From a candidate division WOR-3 bacterium (GTDB taxonomy: Bacteria; Hydrothermota; Hydrothermia; JBDRYB01), in NCBI GenBank assembly GCA_039803205.1, contig JBDRYB010000001.1:23998-87997 (forward strand): DNA of 64,000 bases, read 5' to 3'. Made by a program: the position numbers and the translations under genes. Under the pieces are notes generated by a model. It had not been told where the DNA came from. It did no database searches and worked only from the letters and a program-made list of their open reading frames with translations. Below are positions 8,412 through 50,257 of this stretch, piece after piece (within the stretch, counting starts at the first letter, position 1; each line of letters begins with the position of its first letter).

Positions 8412-8483
8412 TCTGCCCGGAGAAGTTGTGGCGGCCTCTGACCAACCTGGAAAGCCTGTCCTGGGTTGCTTTATAATCTAGAT

Positions 8484-14822: not shown

Positions 14823-14876
14823 CAAAACCCCCATAATAGCGGGAATATCACCTGGGCAACCATGGAGGGATTGCCC

Positions 14877-20196: not shown

Positions 20197-21006
20197 TCAT
20201 TTCCTTATAAGCTTATTCAACAATTCTTCGCCTCTGGTAGTTCCAACCTCACGAAATACATCCAAAACAGCTTCGTAAGAACCTTCACCACCAATAAAAT
20301 CCCAGAATTCTTTGCCAATTAATATCTCATTATTCAGATCAAATAAAGAGAGGGTAAATCCCCACTTATAATTCACCTTTTCTTCGCCCCAGGGATTATA
20401 GGGGAAGCAAAATTTATAAACTCCATTCGGACCAATACCTGCTATAAAATAAAGGAACTTTTCTTTAGTTTGTGAACAAACATCCTTATTTGGCTCCGGA
20501 CTTTTTATCTCAAAAAAGTATTTTTTATCATTTTTATCCTCCAAATAAAGATCAGCTCTCAACAGAATCTCTTGACCTTCACTAGAAGAAGGCTCCAACC
20601 GAGGCAAGGGGGGTGGCGGATAGGGTCTCTCCTTCTTCCTTTTTACATTTTCTATAAAGGTAGCAATTGATTCCTTTATCCTATTATTTGTAGGAATTGC
20701 AAGGGTATAGTTTCGTTCCACCTTAACCCAAAAAGTATTATCGCTAGCTATAAGTTGTGCAATGTACTCAAATACCCCTTGCCCCAATGAAGTGTCAAAC
20801 GATCTGAAAAAGCTATGAAGTCTAAGAAAGTGGGGAGGAAGCAAAGCGGTGTGGAATGGCTTATATTTTCCTTTTTTAGGATCTAACCATACCTGTTTTA
20901 TAACAGCATTTTTCACAACATCCGGATCATACTTATTGACCAGACCTTGCAAAAATCCTTCTAGATATCCGATTATATTCTTTCGCGTAGTATCTTTTAG
21001 TTTCAT
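20197..21006 (-). CDS. putative type II restriction endonuclease
   Basis: 269-aa ORF directly downstream of and overlapping a DNA methyltransferase gene in a markedly AT-rich segment; assignment by context only. Confidence 0.4.
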   Translation of the reverse strand: MKLKDTTRKNIIGYLEGFLQGLVNKYDPDVVKNAVIKQVWLDPKKGKYKPFHTALLPPHFLRLHSFFRSFDTSLGQGVFEYIAQLIASDNTFWVKVERNYTLAIPTNNRIKESIATFIENVKRKKERPYPPPPLPRLEPSSSEGQEILLRADLYLEDKNDKKYFFEIKSPEPNKDVCSQTKEKFLYFIAGIGPNGVYKFCFPYNPWGEEKVNYKWGFTLSLFDLNNEILIGKEFWDFIGGEGSYEAVLDVFREVGTTRGEELLNKLIRK

Positions 21007-22373
21007 TCTTTGTATCCTTTCTGTAGAAATAAAACATATTCATATCTAAGTTTCGCAAACCCCCCCAGAATTGGCCTTCTCATAGCATAGACATCAGAAA
21101 AGCCTATTTCTGGAGCCCAGCTCTCTATCTTTTGACAAAAGTCGGTTCTTTTCCCGTCCACCACTACATCTCCCAATACTATGGCGGCCCATGCTCCTGG
21201 TTTCAGAACCCGGTGCATCTCTTCAACGCTTTTTCTAATGTCCTCCTCGTAGAACAATAATTTTTTATCTTTACCCCCCCTTAGACCCACCATTTGCTCT
21301 CTTAGCGGCGAGGTATCTATGCCCAAATAAGTAAGCAAGTGAAAGTCATTCTTCACATAGTCCAGGGCAATACTGTAAGGTGGGGAGGTTATTATTCCCG
21401 TTATGCTGTTGTCAGTGACCGGAAGGGCCATGGCCGAAGCAAGCTTTATCTCCGGTGCTTTAGGTTCCAGATTTAATTTCTTTAGAGTGAAATAGGTTCC
21501 CTTTATTGTCTGAAGGTATTCCGAAAGATTGATCAGGAAGAACTTTTCAAAAGACTTTTCTTTGGCTGTGCCCTTTAGATAAGTATAATCGGACAGGGCA
21601 TGTAGATATGCTAACAGCAGGAAATTCCTTATCTCAAAAGGTAGTTCTTTGATTTGAGAAGAGGGAAAACGAAATTCCCAGACATAATCAAGAATTTCTT
21701 TGGCATCAACCGGTTCGCTTTCGGGTAAGAATTTCTTGGTTTCAAGCTTTGCCGTCTTAAAGTATTCAAATATTCGTAACGGGGAACCTATCTGGTTTAT
21801 CGCGCTGTTCAGCTCATCATAGTTAATTCTCAGAGAATCTGTTTTTATTTGGGACACAATGCAAAGCGCAGGATTAATGTCTATCCCCAGTCCACCGGTT
21901 CTGAGGAGCGCTGTTTCCACAAGGGTGGTTCCTGATCCCAAAAACGGATCAAGGATGATATCCTCCTCGCCGGCGCCCATGAAGTTTATTATAGCCTTGA
22001 TCATCTGGCCGTGAAACTTGCCCTTGTAAGGGTAGAACCAGTGGGTCATGTATTGATTGCTATTTCCTATCTGACCCTTACCCCTTACTTTGGCTATTGA
22101 GGAGTGATAGCTGGGTTTCCCATCTACTATTTCAAAGTATGCTGACCTTTTCCGGAAGAGATCAAGGTCCTTCCCTAAGGTGGAGAACTCCATCCTTGCC
22201 AATTGAAGCTCATAAATCTGGCCAGCATCATCAAAGAGTTTGAAGCCGTTTCCGGGAAGGATGCCGCCAGTAGCCCAGGAAACAGGATCTATGGATTCTC
22301 CAAGAACACTCCGTAGAGAGACGGCATTCTCTTCTGTTTTTACTGGAAACAAGGCCTTTGCCTTCACCTTCAT
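21003..22373 (-). CDS. DNA methyltransferase (motif I DPFLGSGTT, motif IV TSPPY)
   Basis: Both MTase motifs present; start set at ATG 22373 preceded by GGAGG, just downstream of the purS stop. Confidence 0.8.
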   Translation of the reverse strand: MKVKAKALFPVKTEENAVSLRSVLGESIDPVSWATGGILPGNGFKLFDDAGQIYELQLARMEFSTLGKDLDLFRKRSAYFEIVDGKPSYHSSIAKVRGKGQIGNSNQYMTHWFYPYKGKFHGQMIKAIINFMGAGEEDIILDPFLGSGTTLVETALLRTGGLGIDINPALCIVSQIKTDSLRINYDELNSAINQIGSPLRIFEYFKTAKLETKKFLPESEPVDAKEILDYVWEFRFPSSQIKELPFEIRNFLLLAYLHALSDYTYLKGTAKEKSFEKFFLINLSEYLQTIKGTYFTLKKLNLEPKAPEIKLASAMALPVTDNSITGIITSPPYSIALDYVKNDFHLLTYLGIDTSPLREQMVGLRGGKDKKLLFYEEDIRKSVEEMHRVLKPGAWAAIVLGDVVVDGKRTDFCQKIESWAPEIGFSDVYAMRRPILGGFAKLRYEYVLFLQKGYKE

Positions 22374-22389
22374 ATTATACACCTCCCCT

Positions 22390-22641
22390 TCATTCCCTCT
22401 CCTCCATCTCATACCAGAACCTCTCTATTACCGGATTGGTGAGGAGTCTGCGGGACACATCCTCTATCTGAGCGCGCGCTGAGGCCTCGTCCGGAGCCTC
22501 AAGCGAAAACCGAACTATCTTTCCAACGCGCCCCTCTGAGACCGAAAGCCCAAGCCGCCTCATCGCGGCCTCAACAGCCATGCCCTGTGGATCTCTGAGA
22601 TCGTCGTGGGGCAGAATGAAGACATGAACCAGGTATCTCAT
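22390..22641 (-). CDS. purS: phosphoribosylformylglycinamidine synthase subunit PurS
   Basis: 83 aa with typical PurS sequence; adjacent to purC. Confidence 0.85.
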   Translation of the reverse strand: MRYLVHVFILPHDDLRDPQGMAVEAAMRRLGLSVSEGRVGKIVRFSLEAPDEASARAQIEDVSRRLLTNPVIERFWYEMEERE

Positions 22642-23486: not shown

Positions 23487-23822
23487 ATGCGTAAAAAAAT
23501 CAGGCTCATCCACAGGTATTCAAACAGGAAGATGTATGACACGGCAGGGAAAGCCTTCATAACCCTGGGACAGGTCCTGAGGATGATCGCCCAGGGCATA
23601 AGGGTCAAGGTCATAGACAAGGTCTCGGGGATTGATGTGACCAACCTAATAAGGATAAGGGCAATAGCCAATGAGGCAGAGCGTATCGCCAGAAGGATGT
23701 CATCGGCGGCCTCCAGGGACGCGATAAAGCTCCAGGAATTAGCCGTGGAGCTCGGAAACCTCATGAGAGAGATGGCGAGGCTCAGTAGAATAGTGAAAAA
23801 GGAGGCGCAGAATGGAAGTTAA
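23487..23822 (+). CDS. PhaR-like regulator (PHB/PHA accumulation regulator N-terminal DNA-binding domain)
   Basis: HRYSNRKMYDTAGKAFITLGQV matches the PHB_acc_N signature (KkYpNRRLYDT); C-terminal coiled coil. Confidence 0.6.
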   Translation: MRKKIRLIHRYSNRKMYDTAGKAFITLGQVLRMIAQGIRVKVIDKVSGIDVTNLIRIRAIANEAERIARRMSSAASRDAIKLQELAVELGNLMREMARLSRIVKKEAQNGS

Positions 23823-25290
23823 GGCACTATCCCCCAACATATCAAAGCTTCTCAAAGGCGCCAGCGGCCGAGAGATAATAACTAGGCTTTCGGCCCCTGC
23901 CTTCAAAAACAGGGCCGTGAGGAAGGGGCTTCTGCTATACATTAAGTCCCAGATAAACCGAGGGAACTACTCCGCGATCGTTGCGGGGAATAGGCCGCCC
24001 GGAGTCAAAAGGGATGTAGCGTGGGCCGCGTGGGCCTTGTTGAGATCACTAGATAGGGCCATAGAGGACAAAAGGCTCTCTCACAGGTTCGCGGGGAGGC
24101 TGGTTGAGGTTTTTCTGAACAACATGGTGGCAAGCTGGGCCGATAGGGGAGAAATAAGCGGGTTTTTCAAAAACAAGGGGGAGAAAGGCCCGCCCGGTTT
24201 CCTGGTCATCAGCCCCGCTAAGGCGTGCAACCTCAGGTGTCCGGATTGCTACGCGGCCTCAGGCGCAAACCCTGAGAAGCTCAGCGCGCGCGAGTTCCGG
24301 AGGATAATCACGGAGGCAAAGGAGCTCTGGGGGGTCCGTTTCTTCGTGATCTCCGGCGGAGAACCTTTTCTATGGAGGGACGGGGATACCCGGTTCCTTG
24401 ATGTGGTTGAGGAAAACCCCGATTGCTTTTTCATGGTTTATACGAACGGAACCCTGATAGAGGATGAGGTCGCTGACAGGCTCTCAGAGCTCGCTAATCT
24501 TACCCCGGCAATATCCCTGGAGGGCTTTGAGGAGGAGACGGACAGCAGAAGGGGAAAGGGCACATACGAGAAGGTCCTCGGCGCAATGGCAAGGCTCAGA
24601 AAGAGGGGTATACCCTTCGGAATATCCCTCACTGCTACCAAGAGAAATTACAGGCTTCTGCTTTCTGATGGGTTCCTCAGCGAGTTCTTTGAGCGTCAGG
24701 GCGCGACATACGGTTGGATATTCCAGTATATGCCCATAGGCAGGGATCTGGATCTCTCGCTGATGCCAAGCCCGGAAGAAAGGCTATGGATGTGGAGGCG
24801 CGGGTGGGATGTGATAAGGAAGAAGGGTTATTTCCTGATGGACTTCTGGAACCAGGGAACGGTCTCAGCCGGGTGCATATCTGGCGGAAGGCACACGGGA
24901 TACCTTTACATAGACTGGAACGCTAATGTGTATCCGTGCGTCTTTGTTCCCTATGCCGGCGCGAACCTCAGGGAGATATACGCCAGGGGAGGGACGATAA
25001 CCGAGGCTTACGATTCGCCGCTTTTCAGGGCAATAAGGCGATGGCACGACGCTTACGGGTATGGTAAAACAGAGCCCAATAAGCACAAGAACTGGCTCGC
25101 GCCGTGCCTCATAAGGGATCACTTCCGCGTGCTCAAGAGGCTTGTGGAAAGACACGGGGCAAGGCCGGCGGATACGGTGGCCGCTGAGCTCATAAAAAAC
25201 CCCGAACACGGGGCATTCATGGAGGAATACGATAGGGTTTTCTCTGAGCTCACTCAACCGATATGGAAAAAGGAATATCTAGGGCCGTAG
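23812..25290 (+). CDS. radical SAM protein with about 130-aa N-terminal extension and C-terminal auxiliary Cys cluster
   Basis: CNLRCPDC motif; GGEPF; downstream cysteines (GCISGG...YPCVFVP, APCLI) suggest an auxiliary Fe-S (SPASM/twitch-like) region. Confidence 0.75.
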   Translation: MEVKALSPNISKLLKGASGREIITRLSAPAFKNRAVRKGLLLYIKSQINRGNYSAIVAGNRPPGVKRDVAWAAWALLRSLDRAIEDKRLSHRFAGRLVEVFLNNMVASWADRGEISGFFKNKGEKGPPGFLVISPAKACNLRCPDCYAASGANPEKLSAREFRRIITEAKELWGVRFFVISGGEPFLWRDGDTRFLDVVEENPDCFFMVYTNGTLIEDEVADRLSELANLTPAISLEGFEEETDSRRGKGTYEKVLGAMARLRKRGIPFGISLTATKRNYRLLLSDGFLSEFFERQGATYGWIFQYMPIGRDLDLSLMPSPEERLWMWRRGWDVIRKKGYFLMDFWNQGTVSAGCISGGRHTGYLYIDWNANVYPCVFVPYAGANLREIYARGGTITEAYDSPLFRAIRRWHDAYGYGKTEPNKHKNWLAPCLIRDHFRVLKRLVERHGARPADTVAAELIKNPEHGAFMEEYDRVFSELTQPIWKKEYLGP

Positions 25291-25942: not shown

Positions 25943-26476
25943 ATGGCCAAAATAAGACAAAATGTGCTTTCCGGAATAGGCAAGCTCTTTCTGAGAGCCG
26001 CGAAACGAGGCCTCATGCCAAAGAGGATCGCTTATACACTCGTCGGTCTCGCCACATCCCTTACAGGCGCGTCAAAAGGCCCCTGCGCTGTGATGTGCTA
26101 TGAGGTTCCACCAACAGAACCGTGGATCTCTAGGGTTCTGATCACCAAGAATCCGCTGAGGGGCAAATTCAGGCTAACAGCCACCATAAAAAGCAACGAG
26201 AGGCCTGTGGGCGGTGCTGATGTCAATTTTTGGGTATGGAAGGATGGCCAGGCAGAGGTGTTTCGCGTTGTCCCCATGAACCCGGCTGATGGGGCGTTTG
26301 ATTCTCTAACGGAGGAGGCATATGCCGATCTGGCCCTATGGGGATGGCCCCAAGGAACGAAGATGAACATTTCCGCTTACGACAAGGATGGGAATCACGG
26401 CACCCCACTCAGGATTGGCGTTGAGGTGATGTTCGGGATCCTTTCATTTGAATGCGAGGAGATAGTGGGCTATTGA
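25943..26476 (+). CDS. hypothetical protein
   Basis: 177-aa ORF whose end overlaps the start of the downstream radical SAM/SPASM gene. Confidence 0.35.
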   Translation: MAKIRQNVLSGIGKLFLRAAKRGLMPKRIAYTLVGLATSLTGASKGPCAVMCYEVPPTEPWISRVLITKNPLRGKFRLTATIKSNERPVGGADVNFWVWKDGQAEVFRVVPMNPADGAFDSLTEEAYADLALWGWPQGTKMNISAYDKDGNHGTPLRIGVEVMFGILSFECEEIVGY

Positions 26477-27498
26477 GCGACAAACCAGTTCTCGCGGCCG
26501 CTTTTGAGACAACTCCCAGGTGCAACGCCAACTGTTTGTATTGTTATAATGTCTGGAAGGCTCATCCGGACTATCCAAGGGGGGAACCGGACGCGGAGGG
26601 TCTCCTCCGGGTCCTTGATGCCATCCTTAAGAGCGAGCGGGTGACCATCGTGAGCCTAACCGGCGGAGAGCCACTGCTTCTGGGCGATCTCATCCTTGAG
26701 ATGGGCGCTATGGCGAGGCTTTCAGGAAAATCCGTGAACCTCGTCACCAACGGTTCTCTTATCAGCAAAGGCTTTGCCAAGAACCTCAAGAGGCTCAGCA
26801 TAAGGCCCGTAGAGATAACCCTCCTATCAGCAAGGGAGGAGTTGCACGATTCCTTGCAAAGAGCGAGGACATTCCGGAGCGCAGTTAGCGCCATAAGGAC
26901 AGTGGCTGATGTCGGCGGGGAAGCAATAGTTGGCATAGTCGGAACGAAAGCAAACATTCCCTTTCTCTCCGAGACCCTTGAATTCGCAAAGACCCTCGGA
27001 GCCAAGGGCGCCATGTTCACCAGGTTCAACCCCGGCGGCCAGGGGCTTAGGCACTGGCGGGAGCTCGGGCCTTCCAAGGAGGAACTCAGGTCAGCCATAA
27101 AAACCCTTATGAAATTTGCCGACGAAAACCCAAACCTGACTATAACCTGCGGCGTTCCTATTCCCCCATGCGTTCTAGGTTTCACTGACTACGGAAGGGT
27201 AAAGATGGGTTATTGCAACGCTGGGGGCGATCTCATAGCCATAGATTGGCTCGGAAACCTCCGTCCGTGCAACCATTCCTCCCTTATAGTGGGGAACATA
27301 CTCAAGGTGCCCCTTGATGAGCTTCTGGAATCAAAGCGGTTAAAGGATTTCATGCTCCCTGTGCCTAAGATGTGCGTCGGTTGCCAGTTCTACGATCTAT
27401 GCAAGGGGGGTTGCCGGGCCGCGGCATTTGAGATGGCTTGGTGGCTCAGGAAGGAAAGGTCTGCTGGGTCCATCCGGTTTTCCGGACACACCATCTAG
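26452..27498 (+). CDS. radical SAM/SPASM domain protein
   Basis: CNANCLYC radical SAM motif; SPASM cysteines (CNAGGD...LRPC, CVGCQFYDLCKGGC). Confidence 0.8.
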   Translation: MRGDSGLLSDKPVLAAAFETTPRCNANCLYCYNVWKAHPDYPRGEPDAEGLLRVLDAILKSERVTIVSLTGGEPLLLGDLILEMGAMARLSGKSVNLVTNGSLISKGFAKNLKRLSIRPVEITLLSAREELHDSLQRARTFRSAVSAIRTVADVGGEAIVGIVGTKANIPFLSETLEFAKTLGAKGAMFTRFNPGGQGLRHWRELGPSKEELRSAIKTLMKFADENPNLTITCGVPIPPCVLGFTDYGRVKMGYCNAGGDLIAIDWLGNLRPCNHSSLIVGNILKVPLDELLESKRLKDFMLPVPKMCVGCQFYDLCKGGCRAAAFEMAWWLRKERSAGSIRFSGHTI

Positions 27499-27565: not shown

Positions 27566-27575
27566 TTGGGGCTAA

Positions 27576-27657
27576 GCGAGGGTGGCGGAAAGGCAGACGC
27601 GCCAGATTTAGGATCTGGTGGGCTAATCCCGTGCGGGTTCAAGTCCCGCCCCTCGCA
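27576..27657 (+). tRNA. tRNA-Leu (anticodon UAG), type II with long variable arm
   Basis: Manual fold: acceptor GCGAGGG/CCCUCGC, anticodon stem CCAGA/UCUGG with loop UUUAGGA, T-arm GCGGG-UUCAAGU-CCCGC, discriminator A; the track ORF 27566.. runs through it. Confidence 0.85.
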
Positions 27658-27694
27658 TATCCATTCCAGTTCAGAGAAACATTTTGGAATAAAA

Positions 27695-28651
27695 ATGAAG
27701 GTTGCTGTTGTCGGAGCGGCTGGCCTGGTTGGAAGGACCATGCTTCGCGTCCTTGAGAAGAGGGGCTTTCCGGTCTCGGAGCTGGCGGCTTATGACAAGC
27801 TATCGGGAGAAAGTCTGCTCTTCCGCGGCAATAAGCACCTGTGCATCAGGTTAACTCCAACATCCGTCAGGGGTTTTGACCTCGCGCTTTTTTCGGCAGG
27901 TGCGGATGTCTCCCTGAAATACGCGCCCCTGTTTGCCAAAAAGGGCGCGCTAGTGGTTGACAATTCCTCCGCCTGGCGCATGCATCCCAAGGTTCCACTT
28001 GTCGTCCCAGAGGTGAACCCAGAGGCGCTCATGGATATTCCAATGGGCATCGTGGCCAATCCAAATTGTTCAACGATCCAGATGGTCGTGGCTCTCAAGC
28101 CCCTGGTTCGCTTCGGCATAAAGGAGGTCTTCGTGGCGACATATCAGGCGGTCTCAGGGGCTGGAAAGGACGGGATTGACGCGCTCATATCGGAAGAGAA
28201 GGGCAAGAGGTCGTCAAATTCCCCTCACCTCGGCCCAATTCACAGGAATGTCTTGCCCGGAATAGGAAACTTTGAGGAGGGTTTCTACGAGGAGGAGACG
28301 AAGCTCATCCGTGAGACAAAGAAAATAATGGGCCTTGATGTTCCCGTTCATCCGACCGCGGTGAGGGTTCCTGTGATAGCTGGCCACTCCGAGGCCGTTG
28401 CGGTAAGGCTAAAGAAGAAGGTAAGCCTTGAGGAAATAAAAGCTTCTATGGGAGAGCAGGAGGGCCTCGTCCTCAGCGATGGTTTTGTCACCCCGAAGGA
28501 GGCCGAGGGCAAGGATGAGGTCTTTGTCTCCAGGCTCAGATTTTCGCCTGATGATCCGAGGGTTCTCCTGATGTGGGTTGTCTCAGATAACCTTCTGAAG
28601 GGAGCCGCTCTCAACGCGGTTCAAATAGCAGAGAGGGCCCTATTGCGGTGA
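27695..28651 (+). CDS. asd: aspartate-semialdehyde dehydrogenase
   Basis: MKVAVVGAAGLVGRTML Rossmann N-terminus and Asd core; start at internal ATG 27695. Confidence 0.9.
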   Translation: MKVAVVGAAGLVGRTMLRVLEKRGFPVSELAAYDKLSGESLLFRGNKHLCIRLTPTSVRGFDLALFSAGADVSLKYAPLFAKKGALVVDNSSAWRMHPKVPLVVPEVNPEALMDIPMGIVANPNCSTIQMVVALKPLVRFGIKEVFVATYQAVSGAGKDGIDALISEEKGKRSSNSPHLGPIHRNVLPGIGNFEEGFYEEETKLIRETKKIMGLDVPVHPTAVRVPVIAGHSEAVAVRLKKKVSLEEIKASMGEQEGLVLSDGFVTPKEAEGKDEVFVSRLRFSPDDPRVLLMWVVSDNLLKGAALNAVQIAERALLR

Positions 28652-31968: not shown

Positions 31969-33804
31969 TTATTGCCTATCCCAACCCAAACCCCACATTC
32001 CCCTGGTCCAAGCCCTGCCGTTCCTGCAGGGGGTTCCTGCTGGATAGTTGTCCTTGCCTGATAGGTCAAGGAATATGCCAACGCCTCCAGCGTCCCGGGC
32101 CCTGTTCGCATCGCCGAGGCCTATGTCCTCCCTGGCGGAATATGTGTCATCCCCATCAGAATCCACGAAGATCCCAACGGAATTCGTCAAACCTATACCG
32201 AGGCCGCCGGAGACCTGGTAGTTGTCGTTGCCGCGCTTGTCAATTAGCCAGCCAACAGCGAGGTCGTGGCCCTCGCCCTGGGATGGGCCGTATCTTGAAT
32301 AATAGTGATCCGAGCCGGAGTAATCCCCGAGAAGTCCGACCGAGAGGTGGATTCCGGAGCCCTGCGCGTATTGCACAGCGGAATAGAAGTCGTCGCCAGA
32401 CAGATCGAGGAGAATGCCTGCCGAATACCAGTATGAACAGCCCTGCGCGTATACCTCGCCCTGATACAGGTCGTTGCCCTCGCGGTCCAAAAGAACTGAG
32501 ATCCCCCCAGAAGCGCGTGGTCTAATTCCGATTGAATAGCCTTGCGCGAACGCCCTGTAGTTGTGTTCAAGGAGGGGTTTGTGCAGGTATTCTCCTCCAG
32601 CGTAATAGACATCATCTCCCCCCACCTCGTCCAAGATAGCGCAGCCCTTGACCGATGAGAAGGCCTGAGCGCAAGAGAATGCCCTCATAACATCATCCCC
32701 TCCGCCCTCGTGCATGTAGGAGACCCCGAACATGGCCGCGGATTGTGCGAAAAAGCCGGAGTAATAGAGATCGTCTCCGGCCTTATCCGAGAGAAAACCC
32801 GCGCCGAAAAGCCCCATACCCATTGTGTAATGAGGGGCCCGATACAGGTCATCCCCTGAGAGGTCAACCAGGGCACCGTAGCCCATGAGGCCAGCGCCAA
32901 GGGAGACGAAATCTTCAGCCAGATAAGCGTCATTGCCGCAAAGATCAATCACGGCCGAGAGGGGCCTCCCCAGAAACCCAACCGATCCCCCAGGCCTCCC
33001 GTAGTAGGCGTCTGAGCCACCCTTGTCCAGTATAAGGTGATATAGGGCTGTGGTCTCGGCCGGATGAACATCATCCCCTTCTCCTTTGACCAAAACCCTC
33101 CACTGGCCAGCGGAATAGCTGCCCTCAGGAATTCCCTGTGAGAACATCGTGATCTCCTCTACCCCCATTGAGAACGCTAGGGCTCCGAGGGCTAGCTCAC
33201 GCCAATCAACCAGAGCCGCCAACTCCAGTATCCTTGAAGAGTCATCGCACCAGGCTGTGTCCACCGGAAACCCAAATTCCCTGAGCAGACAGCCCCGCAG
33301 AGTGTCCAGAAGGGTATCACCCTCGTCCGCCCAAAGGGAAAGGGAGTAGTAGAGGAGGGTATCAATCTGGGGCCTGCTCAGCCGCGAAAAGGCTTTTTGC
33401 CTGTGAGCATCAGCCTCGTCCCAGGAGGCTCTGAGGTATGCGAGGCCAGCTTCCCATCCCTTTTTGCCCGCCATGGCCTTTTCAAATCTCTTTCGCATCT
33501 CGTTCGTATCCTTGGGAGAGAGCCCGACATCGAGAAGGGAAAAGCCGAGGAACATGGTGGATGTCGGATTACCGGTTGATCTTGCTATTTCGGCCCTGCA
33601 GGAGTCAGCAAAATGAGGCACATCCATGGGCTTCGCCATCAATCTGTCAACCGTCTTGAGCCTGAATGAGTCGCGGTCGGCCCAGTCCTTGTTGTATGAG
33701 AGGTCCTCTGGGGCCAGATTAATGTAAGCTAGGGCCTGGATGATGGCACTTGTTTCGGCTGTATCAAGGAGAAACTGCGAGAGAAGCAAAAGCGTCATGT
33801 TCAA
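31969..33804 (-). CDS. secreted repeat protein (short G/D-rich repeats, possible beta-helix)
   Basis: Repeated pattern of about 22 aa (G.D.Y....Y.QG.G....G.L.D.SG.D.Y); hydrophobic N-terminus. Confidence 0.5.
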   Translation of the reverse strand: MNMTLLLLSQFLLDTAETSAIIQALAYINLAPEDLSYNKDWADRDSFRLKTVDRLMAKPMDVPHFADSCRAEIARSTGNPTSTMFLGFSLLDVGLSPKDTNEMRKRFEKAMAGKKGWEAGLAYLRASWDEADAHRQKAFSRLSRPQIDTLLYYSLSLWADEGDTLLDTLRGCLLREFGFPVDTAWCDDSSRILELAALVDWRELALGALAFSMGVEEITMFSQGIPEGSYSAGQWRVLVKGEGDDVHPAETTALYHLILDKGGSDAYYGRPGGSVGFLGRPLSAVIDLCGNDAYLAEDFVSLGAGLMGYGALVDLSGDDLYRAPHYTMGMGLFGAGFLSDKAGDDLYYSGFFAQSAAMFGVSYMHEGGGDDVMRAFSCAQAFSSVKGCAILDEVGGDDVYYAGGEYLHKPLLEHNYRAFAQGYSIGIRPRASGGISVLLDREGNDLYQGEVYAQGCSYWYSAGILLDLSGDDFYSAVQYAQGSGIHLSVGLLGDYSGSDHYYSRYGPSQGEGHDLAVGWLIDKRGNDNYQVSGGLGIGLTNSVGIFVDSDGDDTYSAREDIGLGDANRARDAGGVGIFLDLSGKDNYPAGTPCRNGRAWTRGMWGLGWDRQ

Positions 33805-33843
33805 AGGTTAAACCAGAAGGAGGCTGGAAGGCAAGGACGGCTT

Positions 33844-35442
33844 TCAGGTCTGATTATCTCCGAACAGCCTCTTCCTCAGCCTGTTATAGTATTGCCTGTA
33901 TTCGTCAATGTGGCTGTCATAGGGGAATTCGGGAAGGAGCTCGCCTTTCGCCAGCTCGCGGGCCCGGGCGAGGAGTTCCTCTTTCTCGGCGGGATCGCGG
34001 GTCGCGTCAGCGAGCCTCATGAGGTTCTCAATCTCTCCAAGGTCTGTCCAGACATCCTCAAGCTGGTAGAAGTCGCCTCGTTTGGTGAGCAATTGTGGTT
34101 TGCCCAGATTCCTGCGGATAGTGTAAATAGCAGTATAAAGCCACTTCCTCGTCCTGGCGTCGTATCTCCTCCTGGGCCACAGCAGATACGCAAGGTGATC
34201 CTGGGATATTCTGTGTTTAGGCGAGAGCAAGAGGTAGAGCAGAGCCATCAACGCCCTTGAGTTTCGCCACGCCCTAAGGGAAACCTCTTCCCCATCCACC
34301 TGGAGCATGAACTCACCAAGCAGGCTCGCCCTCACGCCCTGCACTGTCCTTTCGCCCTTCCCATATCTAAGCAGGGGTTCCACGCTGATCATGAATTCTC
34401 CTAGCAAAGGGTCGCGCCTGAACCCTGGGTGAAGAGGCAAGAGGGGCGCGAGTAACTTGAGGATCTTCGGGAAAACCGGGTGGTCGTCTTGCCATGCAAA
34501 AAGGGCTGCTGTGAGGCCTGTAAGGATGACCTCTATGTTCTGGTTGACCCTATAGTATCCGAGTGCGGCGTCAAAAAGGAGCTCGGTGGATCTTTTGGGG
34601 TCCTCACACAGGAGTGCTTCGATCTCCTGGGCCCCTGCCTTCTCTCCTGACGAACCCCTCCTGGCAAGTGCCAGACATCTCCTTACAAGCTTCTTGGGAG
34701 GAGGCTCCAGCCCAGCGAGTCGCGTGAGCTCAAGAGCCTTGGCACAAGGGAAGGTCGCGTAGGCAGAACCGAATTCAATGGCGATGTTCATGGACTCCAC
34801 ATATAGATCCCTCGCCTCCTGTAGTTTCCCCATCATCCTGCTGGCCAATCCCTTCATCTCTGTAGCACCCAAAAGGACTATACTGCCGCCCTCGCTGATG
34901 ATGGAATCCAAGAGTTTCAATGCCTTCTCTGGGTTTCCACGGATTATCTCAAGTGCGGCCACTAGGTACTTGGCACCCCCGGTGATCTCTGGACTCCTCA
35001 CCCGCGCGAGGAATCCCCTTGCTTCGTTGTAAAGCGGTTCGTATTCAGCTCTAAAGAATCTGTTGGTCAGAAGTCTCAATCTTGCAATGGAGGCCAGGGT
35101 CAGGTCTCCCGCCTGTCCGGCCATATCCTCTGCTCTAACAAAGTATCCATCGGCTGCATCCAGTTCTCCTATTAGTTCGTAAGCGGTGCCAAGGCAGTTG
35201 AAAAGAAAACTCGCAAGCCTGGGCTTGCCCGAAACTCTTGAAATGAGCCTGGTTCCTTTCCTTATGGCGCTAGAATTGTGATTGTAGACCGCCAGGCGAA
35301 CCTCCAGTAGTTCCGCGGCCAGAAGGTCTTCAAGCTTAAGGCAACGAATGTATCTCATTAAGTCATCCAACTGGCCTGACTTCATCATTGTTAGGCCGCG
35401 TTCAATCCTATCCAAAGTATCCACGTCTAGAGTATAAACCAA
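33844..35442 (-). CDS. transcriptional regulator paralog (TPR-like plus SARP/OmpR-like winged helix)
   Basis: Same architecture as 28640..30277; last 70 aa almost identical; start is TTG, uncertain. Confidence 0.6.
   Translation of the reverse strand: MVYTLDVDTLDRIERGLTMMKSGQLDDLMRYIRCLKLEDLLAAELLEVRLAVYNHNSSAIRKGTRLISRVSGKPRLASFLFNCLGTAYELIGELDAADGYFVRAEDMAGQAGDLTLASIARLRLLTNRFFRAEYEPLYNEARGFLARVRSPEITGGAKYLVAALEIIRGNPEKALKLLDSIISEGGSIVLLGATEMKGLASRMMGKLQEARDLYVESMNIAIEFGSAYATFPCAKALELTRLAGLEPPPKKLVRRCLALARRGSSGEKAGAQEIEALLCEDPKRSTELLFDAALGYYRVNQNIEVILTGLTAALFAWQDDHPVFPKILKLLAPLLPLHPGFRRDPLLGEFMISVEPLLRYGKGERTVQGVRASLLGEFMLQVDGEEVSLRAWRNSRALMALLYLLLSPKHRISQDHLAYLLWPRRRYDARTRKWLYTAIYTIRRNLGKPQLLTKRGDFYQLEDVWTDLGEIENLMRLADATRDPAEKEELLARARELAKGELLPEFPYDSHIDEYRQYYNRLRKRLFGDNQT
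33860..34068. repeat. about 209-bp near-identical duplicated segment (copy B)
   Basis: Matches 28665..28873. Confidence 0.9.
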
Positions 35443-35479: not shown

Positions 35480-35514
35480 TTGCTAGAGTTTTGCTAGAAA
35501 ACCCTACTTATAAT
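35480..35514 (+). promoter_or_regulatory. direct repeats TTGCTAGA at 11-bp spacing followed by a TATAAT -10 box
   Basis: TTGCTAGA at 35480-35487 and 35491-35498, TATAAT at 35509-35514, then GGAGG RBS and ATG 35551. Confidence 0.5.
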
Positions 35515-35550
35515 TTAGGGCCTTATGAAAAAGAGACACGGAGGTGTCAG

Positions 35551-37155
35551 ATGATAGGGATGATAGGAATCTTTATCGGTGCAACCACGGTCAACTGGCC
35601 CTGCTGGGGCGGAGACCCGGAGCGCCAGGGATTGCAGACCACTCCAGGAGCGTTCATAAGCGCTCCTTCAACAAAGTGGAAAGTCCAGACCTACCAACTC
35701 GTCAGGTGGGAATTCTCAGCGATAGCCGATGTTGACGGCGACGGCCAGATGGAGGTCCTCGTAGGATGCTACAACGGATACCCCGGCTTCTTTTGCATCA
35801 ATGGCTCCACGGGCACAGTTGAGTGGTCGGTTAACACATACCTAAGCGGAGTGCTTGCGGGTCCGGCCGTAGCTGATGTGGACAACGATGGCCAGAATGA
35901 GGTGATCTTCGCTAGCAGTGGTTCTGGTGCGGGAGACGATACGGTCTATTGTTACAGCGGAATGGGCTCTCGGAAGTGGGCCTTTTGTAATCCTTCTTCT
36001 GGGAGATACTGGTCCTCGCCGGCCATCGTTGATCTAGATGGAGACGGCAATATGGAGGTGTTAATAGGCAATTCTGACGGGGGGACAGACACTCTGAGCA
36101 GAAGAAGCCTCTATTGCCTGAATGGCTCTAATGGCACCCAGAAGTGGTCATACATTTCAGGCAACTCGGTGGACTGTGCATCCCCATCTGCGGCTGATGT
36201 TGATGGCGATGGCAAGCTAGAAGTGCTCTTCGTGAACTGGGCTAATAGGCTCTTCTGCATCAGCGATACCGTGGTGGCCGGCAACGACACATGCAGGGTG
36301 GAGTGGACATACCCATTCGGTGCTAGCGGTGGGATACAGTGCACCCCGGTTCTTCTCGATCTTGATGGCGACGGTAAGATGGAGATAGTTACTGCCAACG
36401 CGAATTTTAACTCTAATAACCTCTACTGCTTGAACACAGCCACCATCTCAGGCAACGATACAGCGGTTGTCAAGTGGACCTTCTCTGCTGGAAGATATAT
36501 ATACTCCTCTCTATCCGCCGCAGACGCTGACGGAAATGGTATCATAGATGTTTTCGTTGGTAGTTGGGACTCCCTATTATACTGCCTGGACGGAGCAACT
36601 GGCGCCAAGAAGTGGCAATTCGGAAAGGTGCCGGAGATACTCTATACACCTATATCAGTGATGGACGCGGACGGCGCTCATCCCAGCGGCGACCCTGGGC
36701 TTGAGGTTCTTCTTACAGCCAAGGACACCCTATACTGTGTGAACGCGGAGGATGGCTCTCTGCTTTGGAAAGCGAGGGTGGCGCCCCGTGTCAACACACC
36801 GTTCTCAGGGGACATAGACGGAGATGGGGCTTCTGAGATAATAGTCGGTGCAGACAGCGCGTTGTACGCGCTTGATACAGCAAGTCCGGTTTACGAGGGC
36901 ATAGGTGACAATAACAACAACGGAGACCTCGTCCTGTTCCGGTTCACAAACAACCGCTTTTATCTTTATCTGCCAGAAGAGGATGGGATCTCAATCGCTC
37001 TTTACGACGCTGGAGGGCGATTCGTTAAAAGTATCTTTGAAGGCCATCTGAGCTCTGGTAGCCACAACTTTGAGCTGAGTTCGGAGGCCAAGGGGGTCTA
37101 CATCGCTGTTCTCAGGCACAACGAGGGCATAAAGACCCTGAAGATAGCGAGGTAA
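35551..37155 (+). CDS. secreted FG-GAP/PQQ-like beta-propeller protein with C-terminal sorting-domain-like tail
   Basis: Repeated D(V/L)DGDG..E(V/I) and LYC(L/I)...G motifs; hydrophobic N-terminus; C-terminal tail similar to that of 37245..38753; start at ATG 35551 after GGAGG. Confidence 0.6.
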   Translation: MIGMIGIFIGATTVNWPCWGGDPERQGLQTTPGAFISAPSTKWKVQTYQLVRWEFSAIADVDGDGQMEVLVGCYNGYPGFFCINGSTGTVEWSVNTYLSGVLAGPAVADVDNDGQNEVIFASSGSGAGDDTVYCYSGMGSRKWAFCNPSSGRYWSSPAIVDLDGDGNMEVLIGNSDGGTDTLSRRSLYCLNGSNGTQKWSYISGNSVDCASPSAADVDGDGKLEVLFVNWANRLFCISDTVVAGNDTCRVEWTYPFGASGGIQCTPVLLDLDGDGKMEIVTANANFNSNNLYCLNTATISGNDTAVVKWTFSAGRYIYSSLSAADADGNGIIDVFVGSWDSLLYCLDGATGAKKWQFGKVPEILYTPISVMDADGAHPSGDPGLEVLLTAKDTLYCVNAEDGSLLWKARVAPRVNTPFSGDIDGDGASEIIVGADSALYALDTASPVYEGIGDNNNNGDLVLFRFTNNRFYLYLPEEDGISIALYDAGGRFVKSIFEGHLSSGSHNFELSSEAKGVYIAVLRHNEGIKTLKIAR

Positions 37156-37161
37156 AAACAT

Positions 37162-37224
37162 GACCGGCCGCGGAAACTTCGCACCCCCGGCACCTCCCGG
37201 ATGGACCGCGGCCGGTCCGGTTTT
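37162..37224 (+). terminator. hairpin terminator-like element (12-bp GC stem, 32-nt loop, T-rich tail)
   Basis: GACCGGCCGCGG ... CCGCGGCCGGTC perfect inverted repeat followed by cggTTTTg; loop contains gcacctcccgg as in the two other hairpin elements. Confidence 0.5.
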
Positions 37225-37244
37225 GTGAAAACAAGGAGATTACA

Positions 37245-38753
37245 ATGTCTGACATGTATATCATAGGAATGCTGGCCTCCCAAATCCTTGGGACCTGGCC
37301 TATGTGGGGCTATAACCCAGCACACTGGGCTGTCCAACCGGTGCCTGGCACTCATACAACTGCTCCGGTTATGAAGTGGAGTATCTCAACTGGTGATCAG
37401 GTTCAGTGGCTCTTTTCTGCCACAGGTGATGTTGATCGTGATGGCAGAAATGAGGTTCTGGCTGGCTCTTTTTCTGGAACTTTTTACTGCTTGGACGGAA
37501 CCACCGGGGCAACCAAATGGAGCTTTAACGTCGAATCCGAATCACCGATAGAAACCTGCCCGGCTCTTGCGGACATGGCTGGAAATGGTTCAGTAGAGGT
37601 AGTCTTCGCCACTTGGGGCGGAGAAGTCTATTGCCTTGATGGGACGGACGGGAGCGTAAAATGGCAATACGTAACCACCTACTACGATCAATACCACCAC
37701 GGCCCGGTTGTCGTTGATTGCGATGCTGATGGTGATCTGGATGTTGTTATCGGAAACATATATGGAAGTCTATACTGCTTCGATGGTGAGACGGGAACGC
37801 TGATCTGGAACGCTAACATGAGCTCCACAGAAAACTCTTCTCCTGCCGCCGGTGATATAGATGGAGATGGCAAGATAGAGATAGTTATAGGAGGCTCATC
37901 GGGGACCTATTCTTTGAACGGTTCAAACGGAGCCTTGGAGTGGTTGGCTTCAACGGGTATCTGTGCTAATTCATCTCCAGGAATAGCTGACTGCGATGGA
38001 GATGGTCTCGCTGAGGTGATTATAGGTTCTGAGGATTATAATATCTACTGTCTTGATGGTCAAACCGGAGCCGAGAAGTGGCGTTATTCTACCGGAAACA
38101 GGGTTTGGTCTTCTCCTGTGATCCTTGATGCTGACGGAGACGGGCTTCTTGAGATAATAATAGGGAGCTTTGACGGCTACGCTTACTGTCTGAGCGGGGA
38201 ATCCGGAACCCTCCAGTGGAGAACGCAGGTCGGCGACATCCGCGTGGGCATCCCTGCTGGGGATGTGGACGGCGATAACAGATATGAGGTGATCATAGGG
38301 AATACTAGTGGATACACATGCCTCAACGGTGAGGACGGCTCTGTTCTTTGGAGATCAGCACCATCTAGCGGCGGTAGGTCCGTTTACCTCGCGGATGTTG
38401 ACATGGACGGGTGTGTTGAAATTGTGGGTGGGTCAACCGGTTATGATATATATGTGCTTGATGATCCCGGAAACTCGTCGGGTTGTATGAGTATGGGAAA
38501 GGATGAAGAGGGGTATGGCCCAGATTCTCCTGAATTCAAGCCCATGGGTAAAAGTTTATATCTTTTTCTCCCCGAGGATGAGCAGGTTTCTCTGAGCCTA
38601 TACGATGCCTCAGGTAAGCTCGTTCAAAAGGTATATGATGGGGTCCTGAGGCAGGGAAGTCACACCTTCAGCCCCAACATAAACGCTAAAGGTATCTACT
38701 TCGCGGTTATGAGGTATCAGAAAGGGATGAAAACCCTGAAGATTGTGCGATAA
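37245..38753 (+). CDS. secreted FG-GAP/PQQ-like beta-propeller protein with C-terminal sorting-domain-like tail
   Basis: Paralog of 35551..37155; repeated D.DGDG and YCLDG motifs; C-terminal ...KGMKTLKIVR tail. Confidence 0.6.
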   Translation: MSDMYIIGMLASQILGTWPMWGYNPAHWAVQPVPGTHTTAPVMKWSISTGDQVQWLFSATGDVDRDGRNEVLAGSFSGTFYCLDGTTGATKWSFNVESESPIETCPALADMAGNGSVEVVFATWGGEVYCLDGTDGSVKWQYVTTYYDQYHHGPVVVDCDADGDLDVVIGNIYGSLYCFDGETGTLIWNANMSSTENSSPAAGDIDGDGKIEIVIGGSSGTYSLNGSNGALEWLASTGICANSSPGIADCDGDGLAEVIIGSEDYNIYCLDGQTGAEKWRYSTGNRVWSSPVILDADGDGLLEIIIGSFDGYAYCLSGESGTLQWRTQVGDIRVGIPAGDVDGDNRYEVIIGNTSGYTCLNGEDGSVLWRSAPSSGGRSVYLADVDMDGCVEIVGGSTGYDIYVLDDPGNSSGCMSMGKDEEGYGPDSPEFKPMGKSLYLFLPEDEQVSLSLYDASGKLVQKVYDGVLRQGSHTFSPNINAKGIYFAVMRYQKGMKTLKIVR

Positions 38754-45466: not shown

Positions 45467-46108
45467 TTATTGATACCGTCCGCCCTTCTTCTCAGCCTTC
45501 GCCTTCAGTAGTTTGAGCCTGAATGTATCCTCCCTCCCCCTGTCCTCAAGAACCTGCCTTATGAAGGCGATCTCACCATCAAGGTCCGGAATTATCTTCT
45601 GTTCAAGAGCGTTGACGCGCCGGGTCGTCTTCTTTATCTCCAGGCCCATCTTCTTGAGCTTGATCTCCGTTGGGACCAGGGCCAAAACAGCCTCAAGTAG
45701 CCTCTCAAACTCCTCTGCTGTCCAATCTATCCTGCTCGTTATGGAAAATGGGGAGTATCCCCTGGCGAGAAGCCCCTTGGTCGCGGCGCCCGGCTCAAGG
45801 GATGGAAGATGAACCCCCCAGACCTTCCTATCCTTGATTTCAACGGATAGATCCGCGCCAGAAGCCATGCCTGCCGAGGCGAGAGCCTCCGGACCATCAA
45901 TGCCCATGGCCACAGCCAGGGCCGAAAGGGCCTTTCTGGTTCTCTCGCTCAGGTCCCTCCGCTGAGCGAGAAGCGGTTTTATCAGGGCCATGAACTCCGC
46001 CAGAAGTGCCTCGCGTTTGTTCCTCAGGAGGCTCGCGCCATCTGTCGCGAGCTTGCGCTGGCGTTTTTTAGCCAGGAGGACCATCCTCGTTGGGGTTATC
46101 CTTGCCAC
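45467..46108 (-). CDS. V-type (A/V) ATP synthase subunit D homolog
   Basis: MARITPTRMVLLAKKRQRKLA N-terminus and TRRVNALE block characteristic of V/A-ATPase subunit D; no other V-ATPase subunits in the window. Confidence 0.75.
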   Translation of the reverse strand: MARITPTRMVLLAKKRQRKLATDGASLLRNKREALLAEFMALIKPLLAQRRDLSERTRKALSALAVAMGIDGPEALASAGMASGADLSVEIKDRKVWGVHLPSLEPGAATKGLLARGYSPFSITSRIDWTAEEFERLLEAVLALVPTEIKLKKMGLEIKKTTRRVNALEQKIIPDLDGEIAFIRQVLEDRGREDTFRLKLLKAKAEKKGGRYQ

Positions 46109-47797: not shown

Positions 47798-48487
47798 CTA
47801 CTGAGCCAATCTCAGGCCCCAGGCCGCTATCTCAGTATCACCAGCTAGGATCGCGCCCAAAACCCCATCTTGGCCCTTTATAGCCTCCATGGCCTCGCGA
47901 ACAGGAACCCCGGGGCCCAGCTCGTTTCCGAGCCTCGTTGCCCACGCATCTGCCAGAGCACCTGATTCCGCGACAACGGTAGCGGCCCAGGCATTGCCCA
48001 GGCTGAGAGAGGGGCCTAATCTGCCTGAGGATGTCGCTATTCCCCACCTCCCTGGGGGGATAACGAGCCTCAGGCTGGGGAGCTTCGGGTTGCCGATGAA
48101 TGCCTCAGCGACCCTTTCCTCTCCTGTCCTAATGAAGACATCTCCACCGTTTTCTATGGCCATATCGCCTTCGTAGGCCTGGCATATCTCCTCAGCAAAG
48201 GCCCCAGCGACCCCTGCCATTGGGCCGACCCCAGCGGCTTCAGCCGCGCTACACATCTTTGCCACTATATCAGGAACAGGTGGAGATGGATCAACCGGCT
48301 CAAGGCTCATCTTGAATATGGGATGCCTAGCGATATACCCCTCTAGCTCAGACCAGAGCTCCTTCAATCTCTCGCAAGCTGGTCCAGAGGGGATGGGCTC
48401 CTCCGATAAAAGGAGGATATCGGAGTGTCTGTAGACTATCCTGATGGCATGCCGCCAACCGGAGACCCTTCCCCTGTATGGTTTCAT
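47798..48487 (-). CDS. UPF0280 (ApbE-like) family protein
   Basis: Sequence pattern typical of archaeal-type UPF0280 proteins; third gene of the DUF39 / NIL-ferredoxin operon. Confidence 0.55.
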   Translation of the reverse strand: MKPYRGRVSGWRHAIRIVYRHSDILLLSEEPIPSGPACERLKELWSELEGYIARHPIFKMSLEPVDPSPPVPDIVAKMCSAAEAAGVGPMAGVAGAFAEEICQAYEGDMAIENGGDVFIRTGEERVAEAFIGNPKLPSLRLVIPPGRWGIATSSGRLGPSLSLGNAWAATVVAESGALADAWATRLGNELGPGVPVREAMEAIKGQDGVLGAILAGDTEIAAWGLRLAQ

Positions 48488-48867
48488 TCAAGCGCCTCAA
48501 GAGCCTGAGTGGGGCAGGAATCTATGCAGAATAGGCAAAAAAAGCAGGCATCCGGGTCAAATTGAAGCGCGTCGTTCTTCATGTGGAGGGCACCAGATAG
48601 GCAAACACCAACGCAACTCCCGCAGTCAACGCATCGCTCCTCATGCCGAACTATCTTTTCAGCCAGGGGGATAACCGAGACCCCCGCGGCCTCCAGCCAC
48701 TCAATTGCTGGGCCCGCGTCCTCAGGTATATCTACTACCATCTCACCGATCTCCCGAGGGCTAACGCTCGCCCGCAGGATGTTTATCTCAACGCCCTTCT
48801 CCCTTATCAGGGCTGAGATTATTGGCTTGTCCAAAAGCTGGCTTGGAAACCTGAGAAATAGTTTCAT
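48484..48867 (-). CDS. NIL domain / 4Fe-4S ferredoxin protein
   Basis: N-terminal NIL-like segment and two CxxCxxCxxxCP ferredoxin motifs (CVDCGSCVGVC, CFFCLFCIDSCP); start set at Met-11. Confidence 0.75.
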   Translation of the reverse strand: MKLFLRFPSQLLDKPIISALIREKGVEINILRASVSPREIGEMVVDIPEDAGPAIEWLEAAGVSVIPLAEKIVRHEERCVDCGSCVGVCLSGALHMKNDALQFDPDACFFCLFCIDSCPTQALEALE

Positions 48868-48868
48868 T

Positions 48869-50014
48869 TCACGCCTCCAGGTTCCTGATCTGGCCATCCA
48901 CCGGAAGGGGAGCTGTTCGCTCGGATAGCCTGAACACGCCTCTCCTGATCCACTCCCTGAGGGTTTCCGCGACCTTCCTTGAGAGCCTCATGCTCGTCCG
49001 AGAGCCTGTTTTTACCGGTTTTCCCATTATCTCAACATAGCCGGATCTGAGCTCTCGGTATGAGACGAGTTTTACCCGGGGCCTTGCCCTTCTCGGGATT
49101 CCGTAGTCAAGAATGGCTGTCTTGATGAGGCTATCGGGCCTTGAGGCGGACTCAGCTATATCCTCGTCAAGTATGGGTATTGCGGTTCCTATGCCAAGAA
49201 AAAGGCTAATTCCGTATCCCGGGATGTAGGCGGCCCTCAGGAACTCAGCGCTCATCTCCTTCAGATTGCCAACAAGGGCAAGGGTCGCGCCGGGTGTGAG
49301 TGGCAGGCCGGACTCGTCCCTCATGGGGGATGCGTTGAACTGGGTTCCCTCCCAGGCAACATAGCCTATTGCTCCCCCGAGGAACACTCGCGTCCCTATG
49401 CCTATGGTCCTCAGATCAGGGTCCTTCAGGAGGGGTGAGAGCTCCCCTGATGTGGCATACATGACATTCCCGTAGCCGGGGAGGAGTTTCCCCATGTATG
49501 TGTATAGAACCCTCTCAGAGGAATTTGTGGCCGCTGGATAGTTCTGATACAGGTTTCTCGGGTTAAAGAGGAACGCCTGATTGATATCCTTCAGGGTTAT
49601 CTCCGCCTCAACATGCTCCCTTGGATAGCAATCCGTGCGGGCCCCTCTTGCTGAGAGCCTAACCCTCTCGCCCCTCAAAAGGGCCTCTATCACATGCGCG
49701 CCGCCATACCGAGGGTCGCTCTCAGAGGCCTGGGTTGCTCCCATGTAAAGGTCAACCGCGGCAAGGCCGCCGTGCGCCTCAACCCCGTTCAGGAAAACCC
49801 TCTGGAGCTTAGCTGGAGGGTCGGTGTGGCCAGTGTTCAGGAAAAGGCCAGAACTGCACATCATTCCAAAAGTCCCTGTTGTCACAACATCAACCCTTTG
49901 GGCTATTGCCTTTGTCCCCTCTGATTCTCGGAGCCTCGCGGCCTCCTCGGCCGTGAGAACGACAACATCGCCTCTTGCTATTTTTTCGTTTATCTGCTCT
50001 ATGGTTCTTCGCAT
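48869..50014 (-). CDS. DUF39 homocysteine biosynthesis protein (COG1900-like, aspartate-semialdehyde sulfurtransferase-type)
   Basis: 381-aa protein with DUF39-like conserved blocks, followed by NIL-ferredoxin as in the methanogen-type homocysteine locus. Confidence 0.7.
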   Translation of the reverse strand: MRRTIEQINEKIARGDVVVLTAEEAARLRESEGTKAIAQRVDVVTTGTFGMMCSSGLFLNTGHTDPPAKLQRVFLNGVEAHGGLAAVDLYMGATQASESDPRYGGAHVIEALLRGERVRLSARGARTDCYPREHVEAEITLKDINQAFLFNPRNLYQNYPAATNSSERVLYTYMGKLLPGYGNVMYATSGELSPLLKDPDLRTIGIGTRVFLGGAIGYVAWEGTQFNASPMRDESGLPLTPGATLALVGNLKEMSAEFLRAAYIPGYGISLFLGIGTAIPILDEDIAESASRPDSLIKTAILDYGIPRRARPRVKLVSYRELRSGYVEIMGKPVKTGSRTSMRLSRKVAETLREWIRRGVFRLSERTAPLPVDGQIRNLEA

Positions 50015-50257
50015 AAAAACATCTCCTTTTGTCTTGGGTTTCTCAGGGGAGAGCGCAGTGTAGCTCGCGCCAGATCACGCGCCTGTCTGCGAAGCAGACC
50101 CATGCCCCCGGCCCGGGGGCCGGAGAATGGCGCGCATGTCATAGGATCTCATTCGGTTGGGAGCAAATTATGGATCAAGCGGAGGGAGAGATTCAACCTG
50201 AAGCAACAAGCTTTCTCTACTGGCAAAATGAGGACTCCAACCATTATAATATTCAGG

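Follow-up and report, generated by a model that had tools for sequence, protein, structure and literature searches.

The 64-kb window analysed here, a stretch of 64,000 nucleotides (nt) of contig JBDRYB010000001.1 from a candidate division WOR-3 bacterium, carries three consecutive minus-strand open reading frames (ORFs; 48869..50014, 48484..48897, and 47798..48487) which encode a DUF39 protein, a NIL-domain ferredoxin, and a UPF0280/COG2122 protein. The original prediction had placed a minus-strand trio of these three families at 47798-50014, and both the ORFs and the family assignments hold, the latter through PF01837 for the DUF39 protein, PF09383 together with Fer4 models for the NIL-ferredoxin, and PF27030 and the structure 2o34 for the UPF0280 protein. 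The DUF39 stop codon is separated by 1 nt from the ATG of the NIL-ferredoxin gene, which has GGAGG ahead of it, and the junction between the NIL-ferredoxin and UPF0280 genes is an ATGA stop/start overlap. Because of the 1-nt gap, the ATGA overlap, and the Shine-Dalgarno (SD)-like sequences at the starts (GGAGG and GAGG ahead of the two downstream genes, read from the sequence), the three genes look like one translationally coupled operon. Gene callers, in six identical public contigs, start the NIL-ferredoxin at 48867 (127 amino acids, aa) and not at 48897, and the upstream start is unlikely to be the one used. No intrinsic terminator was found downstream of the operon or within its leader. 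The GC content of the operon (0.563) is similar to that of the window (0.535), and the operon therefore looks native. It is identical across six independent assemblies, and an identical DUF39 protein occurs in several candidate division WOR-3 metagenome-assembled genomes (GCA_039803065.1 and others), where its NCBI name is 'homocysteine biosynthesis protein [candidate division WOR-3 bacterium]'; a close relative of the protein is labelled Candidatus Hydrothermia. The coordinates of these genes and of the other features discussed below are collected in the table.

Table. Features of the operon, its leader, and other parts of the window, with the corresponding positions in related loci (those prefixed with L).
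Feature	Position	Strand	Remarks
DUF39/COG1900a protein, putative L-aspartate semialdehyde sulfurtransferase catalytic subunit	48869..50014	-	381 aa
NIL-domain ferredoxin, putative electron-donating and regulatory subunit	48484..48867	-	127 aa
UPF0280/COG2122 protein, ApbE-like fold, pathway accessory factor (putative)	47798..48487	-	229 aa; homolog of MA1715 / DvMF_0044 / DVU1097
Shine-Dalgarno sequence AAGGAG	50023..50028	-	8 nt upstream of the DUF39 ATG; read from sequence
Promoter-like -35/-10 pair (TTGAAT, 18 nt, CATAAT)	50167..50196	-	consensus scan
Conserved leader element, candidate cis-regulatory RNA	50072..50149	-	~80 nt (~80-92 nt across members); downstream of the promoter-like pair
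Leader element in relatives	L007 4318..4409; L090 1335..1426; L091 174..265; L095 851..942; L097 1053..1144		
MetH-type methionine synthase region in relatives	L090 3734..4146; L091 2590..2981	-	convergent with the trio
asd (aspartate-semialdehyde dehydrogenase)	27695..28651	+	318 aa; PF01118 Semialdhyde_dh and PF02774 Semialdhyde_dhC
tmRNA gene	11844..12176	-	tag peptide AEKAYAYA

The 381-aa product of the first gene, on whose match to DUF39 models the original prediction had hung, covers the PF01837 (HcyBio) profile over its full length (positions 1-349 of 349; 453 bits, E=7e-136). It contains two cysteines in all, C53 within a TFGxMC motif and C129 within a TDCYP motif, neither of which varies among 20 diverse aligned homologs (54-76% identity to the window protein). 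In a Methanosarcina homolog taken from GTDB (L063), the cysteines of the same two motifs number 54 and 131 when counted from its Met, and by this numbering C53 and C129 correspond to Cys54 and Cys131 of MA1821, the DUF39 protein of Methanosarcina acetivorans. A C54A mutant of MA1821 is non-functional, Cys131 is conserved, with the C131A mutant keeping reduced activity, and a conserved MA1821 cysteine bears a persulfide in vivo (PMC12068725). The Methanosarcina and window proteins are about 51% identical over the whole domain, with both conserved cysteines present. They differ in their C-termini, the Methanosarcina protein reaching about 500 aa by an extension described as a CBS domain (PMC12068725), whereas the window protein ends 18 residues past the DUF39 domain and gave no match to CBS. 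Regulation by sensing of S-adenosylmethionine (SAM) on the catalytic subunit is therefore not expected. Most bacterial DUF39 forms are about 385 aa long, and the C-terminal CBS pair of the archaeal proteins MA1821 and MJ0100 is not defining for them. An identity as the coenzyme M (CoM) synthase MMP16 (COG1900d, ComF) was rejected, the TIGR03287 score being 119 bits against a cutoff of 364, and with two cysteines only the protein lacks the ferredoxin insertion that MMP16-type proteins carry in their COG1900 domain.

The protein encoded 1 nt further on is the partner expected of a DUF39 protein, combining a NIL domain with two [4Fe-4S] motifs. In its 137-aa form, PF09383 (NIL) is matched at residues 15-75 alongside Fer4 models, and eight cysteines located after the NIL domain form two complete CX2CX2CX3C motifs. 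The ferredoxin half resembles solved polyferredoxins and RnfB, while the NIL domain has been described as methionine-binding (PMC12068725).

The same gene order recurs far outside the WOR-3 lineage. The synteny scan took one genome per GTDB species and returned 80 loci, seven of them with too little downstream DNA, leaving 73 informative loci; the phyla covered were Bacillota, Bacteroidota, Spirochaetota, Atribacterota, Thermotogota, Synergistota, Actinomycetota, and Neomarinimicrobiota, along with methanogenic and other archaea. DUF39, NIL-ferredoxin, and COG2122 follow each other in this order in 55 of the 73 informative loci, which argues that the arrangement is not due to chance. The first two genes occur by themselves in 14 loci, COG2122 occurs without a separate NIL-ferredoxin match in three (in L083, DUF39 has a fused C-terminal ferredoxin domain), and DUF39 stands alone in one. 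In the closest relatives, L090 and L091 (about 77% identical), a convergent gene directly past the trio encodes a 780-aa cobalamin-dependent methionine synthase with S-methyl_trans, Pterin_bind, and B12-binding domains. This adjoining MetH links the trio to the synthesis of methionine without recourse to published work. In the window its position is taken by a DivIC-like gene and enolase. The 64-kb window as a whole contains no methionine synthase gene, and searches of it for metX, metY, metB, hom, metE, and metH likewise returned none.

The third protein had no match in the Pfam copy used and scored 155 bits against the NCBIfam PRK04334 (UPF0280) equivalog models, under their cutoff of 271; a precomputed match to PF27030 (AbpE_bact) exists, and its NCBI name is 'UPF0280 family protein'. 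Searched as a single sequence, it matched PDB entry 2o34 (DVU1097) at E=6e-20, and profiles reached 3e-59 and 7e-65. Its AlphaFold model (pLDDT 94, pTM 0.92) has 2o34 as its best fold match, the two superposing with a TM score of 0.82. The UPF0280 identity is supported by sequence, by profile, and by the predicted fold. Beyond 2o34, the Foldseek matches at E<=0.01 are exclusively ApbE, Ftp, and FmnB structures (E 2e-5 to 3e-3). The core fold of the model is common to the ApbE/Ftp flavin transferases (PF02424; PDB 4xgx, 3pnd, and 6nxi; Foldseek E~1e-5, probability 1.0, TMq~0.55), but these are 12-18% identical to the window protein and 290-330 residues long compared with its 229, and the part of ApbE that binds flavin is not common to COG2122 (PMC5764234). 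The Pfam ApbE model PF02424 did not match the window protein at E<=0.01 and matched four of 38 UPF0280 family members with a best E of 0.034, and profile searches of the PDB with the window protein did not reach ApbE structures. The description of this protein as ApbE-like in the original prediction is thus accurate for the fold and fails for the sequence, by which membership in the ApbE family is not supported.

Conserved motifs of the UPF0280 protein are G-P-M (residues 88-90), N-G-G-D (113-116), S-S..G.S.S.G (153-164), and D..A....N (180-188). N113, G114, G115, D116, S153, D180, and N188 are invariant across 120 UPF0280 homologs, and the remaining motif positions are invariant in alignments of 20 and 38 sequences. 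One further residue varies. The cysteine of a G-I-C-(T/S)-S-S-G motif, a candidate residue for sulfur relay, is present in 18 of 20 operon-linked UPF0280 proteins and in DVU1097, where the motif reads G-x-C-x-S-S, whereas residue 151 of the window protein is Ala, as it is in the nearest relative. This position is Cys in 78 and Ala in 42 of the 120 nearest homologs, five of which have no cysteine at all, so the motif cysteine is not family-defining. Three genes for the Cys-free proteins could be located, each of them directly after a NIL-ferredoxin gene and two of them with DUF39 upstream. That Cys-free proteins are kept in trio operons argues against a persulfide relay through a COG2122 cysteine; whatever its role, COG2122 cannot have a persulfide on one of its own cysteines as a general requirement.

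The alanine is also the one feature that could speak for chance adjacency of the three genes or for a decaying, non-functional operon; nothing else does. The reading frames are intact, the domain matches full-length, and the catalytic residues invariant, the operon is identical in the six assemblies and syntenic both in the 77%-identity relatives and across phyla, and the Ala variant is shared with other operon members, so that the substitution was rejected both as evidence of decay and as a variant peculiar to the window. Decay or coincidence can accordingly be given next to no weight.

One of the loci with a Cys-free UPF0280 protein, the metagenomic L088 (666..4735), has a class-V aminotransferase gene (cysteine-desulfurase-like) and an Rrf2-family regulator gene directly upstream of its trio-like genes, which encode DUF39, a NIL-ferredoxin-like protein, and the Cys-free protein. 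This arrangement may represent a different regulatory or sulfur-supply solution.

All three families of the window have counterparts in characterised sulfide assimilation systems. In M. acetivorans, as summarised in PMC12068725 with reference to Rauch 2014, Allen 2015, and Rauch & Perona 2016, the enzyme L-aspartate semialdehyde sulfurtransferase, or L-ASST, consists of the DUF39-CBS protein MA1821 and the NIL-ferredoxin MA1822, and MA1715, of COG2122, is required for efficient sulfide assimilation according to earlier work cited in the same summary. As in the window, the partner that joins a NIL domain to two [4Fe-4S] motifs is encoded immediately downstream of DUF39. The Methanosarcinaceae locus L065 has no COG2122 match despite ample downstream DNA, whereas the window has COG2122 in the operon. 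In Desulfovibrio vulgaris Miyazaki, the DUF39 protein (DvMF_1464), the protein of the NIL/ferredoxin type (DvMF_0262), and the COG2122 protein (DvMF_0044) are all needed for growth without methionine, and homoserine is not an intermediate of the pathway (PMC5764234). The D. vulgaris system is of the bacterial, CBS-less type like that of the window, but its genes appear dispersed, judging from widely separated locus tags, whereas those of the window form one operon. Dehalococcoides DET0921:DET0919, cited as encoding the pathway (Price et al., PMC5764234), is apparently a three-gene cluster, as in the window. The label 'methanogen-type' used in the original prediction is therefore apt for where the pathway was discovered but not for the architecture: a CBS-less DUF39 protein, a separate NIL-ferredoxin, and an adjacent COG2122 gene make up the common bacterial form, in contrast to the Methanosarcina protein with its C-terminal CBS pair.

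Membership in the families, the conserved residues, the structure of the operon, the synteny kept in other species, and the MetH linkage in relatives, all observed in this analysis, point to an operon of known type that would make homocysteine from aspartate semialdehyde and sulfide, a reading to which we assign a probability of roughly 0.88. The role originally predicted for the trio in forming homocysteine from these two substrates agrees with the published set (PMC5764234; PMC12068725). The proposed mechanism takes its substrate, product, electron flow, and regulation from the published genetics and biochemistry of other organisms. Sulfide would be loaded onto the DUF39 cysteines as a persulfide, as in MA1821 in vivo. 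The DUF39 protein would bind aspartate semialdehyde, and the sulfur would be moved via the two conserved cysteines to the aldehyde carbon, C4, after which the two [4Fe-4S] clusters of the NIL-ferredoxin would give two electrons to reduce the thio-intermediate, yielding the thiol. Feedback control probably runs through the NIL domain as a sensor of methionine, and the UPF0280/COG2122 protein would serve as an accessory factor that aids efficient use or mobilisation of sulfide. A methionine synthase encoded elsewhere in the genome would then methylate homocysteine, giving methionine.

Several points weigh against homocysteine formation as the function. The window UPF0280 protein is without the cysteine present in about two thirds of its homologs, the COG1900 family also includes the CoM synthase MMP16, and L-ASST may have a side activity towards sulfoacetaldehyde (PMC12068725). 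The last two would fit an enzyme of the same family acting on a different aldehyde, for example on sulfoacetaldehyde in the synthesis of coenzyme M or on the way to some other small thiol, the more so as L-ASST may partly replace CoM synthase (MMP16/ComF) in M. acetivorans (PMC12068725). We nonetheless regard a different aldehyde as very improbable, given the low TIGR03287 score, the lack of an inserted ferredoxin domain, cysteine positions of the COG1900a/L-ASST type, the NIL-domain partner with its reported affinity for methionine (PMC12068725), and the MetH gene adjacent to the trio in relatives; nor were any CoM-using enzymes seen in the window.

Another possibility is that the genes form a general sulfide-mobilising or sulfur-trafficking module which serves several thiolation pathways (Fe-S clusters, tRNA thiolation, and cysteine). 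According to PMC5764234 and PMC12068725, either cysteine or homocysteine rescues an MA1715 mutant of M. acetivorans, in which sulfide assimilation is broadly affected. The cysteine-desulfurase-like gene and Rrf2 regulator upstream of the L088 operon would suit such a broader role. In D. vulgaris, however, the fitness profile of COG2122 tracks that of DUF39 (r=0.98) and the mutants are rescued by methionine (PMC5764234), and the 55 of 73 loci with all three genes show COG2122 to be tightly coupled to DUF39 and NIL-ferredoxin. A general sulfur module is thus improbable, if a little less so than action on another aldehyde, and the synthesis of homocysteine from aspartate semialdehyde and sulfide is retained as the preferred reading.

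The asd gene, whose presence in the same window the original prediction had brought in as the source of substrate, is real and does supply the substrate, though its presence is no evidence for the pathway. It lies unlinked, 20 kb from the operon and on the opposite strand, and is a housekeeping gene which also serves lysine, threonine, and diaminopimelate synthesis, and for these reasons it adds nothing to the argument. A longer asd ORF begins at 27566, but its 43 extra codons (27566..27694) cross a tRNA-Leu gene (27576..27657, plus strand), so that the start at 27695 is taken as correct and the extension as an artefact. An anaerobic lifestyle, as originally proposed, is a reasonable inference; the five radical-SAM genes in the window fit an anaerobe and are no proof of one.

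Upstream of the DUF39 gene, a region of 213 nt carries the promoter-like pair and, downstream of it, a conserved block. The promoter-like pair is kept in the aligned clade relatives as TTGAAY...TATAMT. The block is 68-90% identical among five distinct relatives, compared in the same five with 39-62% for the spacer between block and ATG and 48-63% for third positions of the coding sequence. Independent minimum free energy (MFE) folds of the window sequence and three relatives give the same four-helix topology, with an outer helix P1, an unpaired invariant AUGACAUG (50142..50135), and a helix P2 enclosing the hairpins P3 and P4. P1 is AGAUC/GAUCU in the window and GACGAAGG/CCUUCGUC in the relatives, and P2 is GCGCGCC/GGCGCGU and CAGGCC/GGCCUG, respectively, so that both helices are unrelated in sequence between window and relatives while the pairing is kept. 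P3 is a CCCCC/GGGGG hairpin within 50104..50123, and compensatory changes are present in P4, a GUCUGC-UUCG-GCAGAC hairpin. Built from the relatives only, a covariance model found its top match in the 64-kb window, both strands included, at 50073..50142 (22.2 bits, E~0.005). The model had no match when run on DUF39 loci of other phyla, about 1 Mb in all, and by this sequence comparison the element appears to be conserved only in this WOR-3 clade.

The leader recalls the Rfam riboswitches of the methionine cycle (SAM-I to SAM-VI, SAM/SAH, and SAH, the latter for S-adenosylhomocysteine) in its place within the 5' leader of an operon for the methionine pathway, and in its compact fold of several helices that leaves an invariant segment unpaired. 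It differs from them in having no model match, no terminator, and no consistent SD-sequestering platform. No Rfam 15 model matched it, whether at the gathering score or E<=10 for the window or with E<=1 as the limit for three relatives, and a known riboswitch, whether for SAM, SAH, or another ligand, was rejected on this ground. A search for an SD-sequestering expression platform consistent between the window and its relatives found none: the full-length fold of the window pairs the SD sequence with a UCCU beside P1, and the relatives have no common pattern. The sample comprises six distinct sequences only. Covariation within the relatives, which are few and too similar to each other, is slight (two pairs with double changes, equalled by 25 of 500 shuffles), and the window element reaches an MFE z-score of only -1.24. 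On balance, the conservation makes a genuine element of the 5' untranslated region somewhat probable, whereas its being a structured regulatory RNA, as the predicted folds suggest, is a tentative proposition with the odds slightly against it. More specifically, a new, lineage-restricted riboswitch or cis-regulatory RNA that controls the L-ASST operon of this WOR-3 clade by sensing a metabolite of the methionine cycle, be it SAM, SAH, methionine, or homocysteine, is an unlikely, if conceivable, outcome. We know of no regulatory RNA of methionine metabolism described in this phylum, and the leader is the only new-looking item at the locus.

Elsewhere in the window, two restriction-modification systems are encoded on the minus strand. 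The first (20197..22412), a TdeIII-type restriction endonuclease together with a DNA methylase, lies in a patch whose GC content is 41.6%, compared with about 54% for the window, and is probably a horizontally acquired restriction-modification island; the second (12253..13766) pairs a BglII-like endonuclease with an N6/N4 DNA methylase and adjoins the tmRNA gene. A lone gene for V-type ATPase subunit D (45467..46108, minus strand) lies between a glycosyltransferase gene and enolase, with no other V-ATPase subunits within the annotated 10 kb on either side. At 6663..11626 on the plus strand, genes for two large proteins that match no Pfam family (582 and 605 aa) precede one for a radical-SAM/SPASM enzyme, and four further radical-SAM genes are found at 141..2438, 13794..14834, 23812..25290, and 26452..27498. 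Two more large ORFs without a Pfam match, of 611 and 532 aa, are located in 31969..35442 (minus strand) and 35491..38753 (plus strand), beside two proteins with FG-GAP/beta-propeller repeats.

The operon is a further instance of a described system, already annotated as such, and adds nothing to knowledge of the pathway. The two items for follow-up, either of which could matter more than the operon itself, are the Cys-free COG2122 proteins and the leader as a candidate new regulatory RNA of methionine metabolism. For the organism, the operon indicates that sulfide is probably incorporated into homocysteine directly in this WOR-3/Hydrothermia lineage, a point of use in reconstructing the metabolism of an uncultured phylum.

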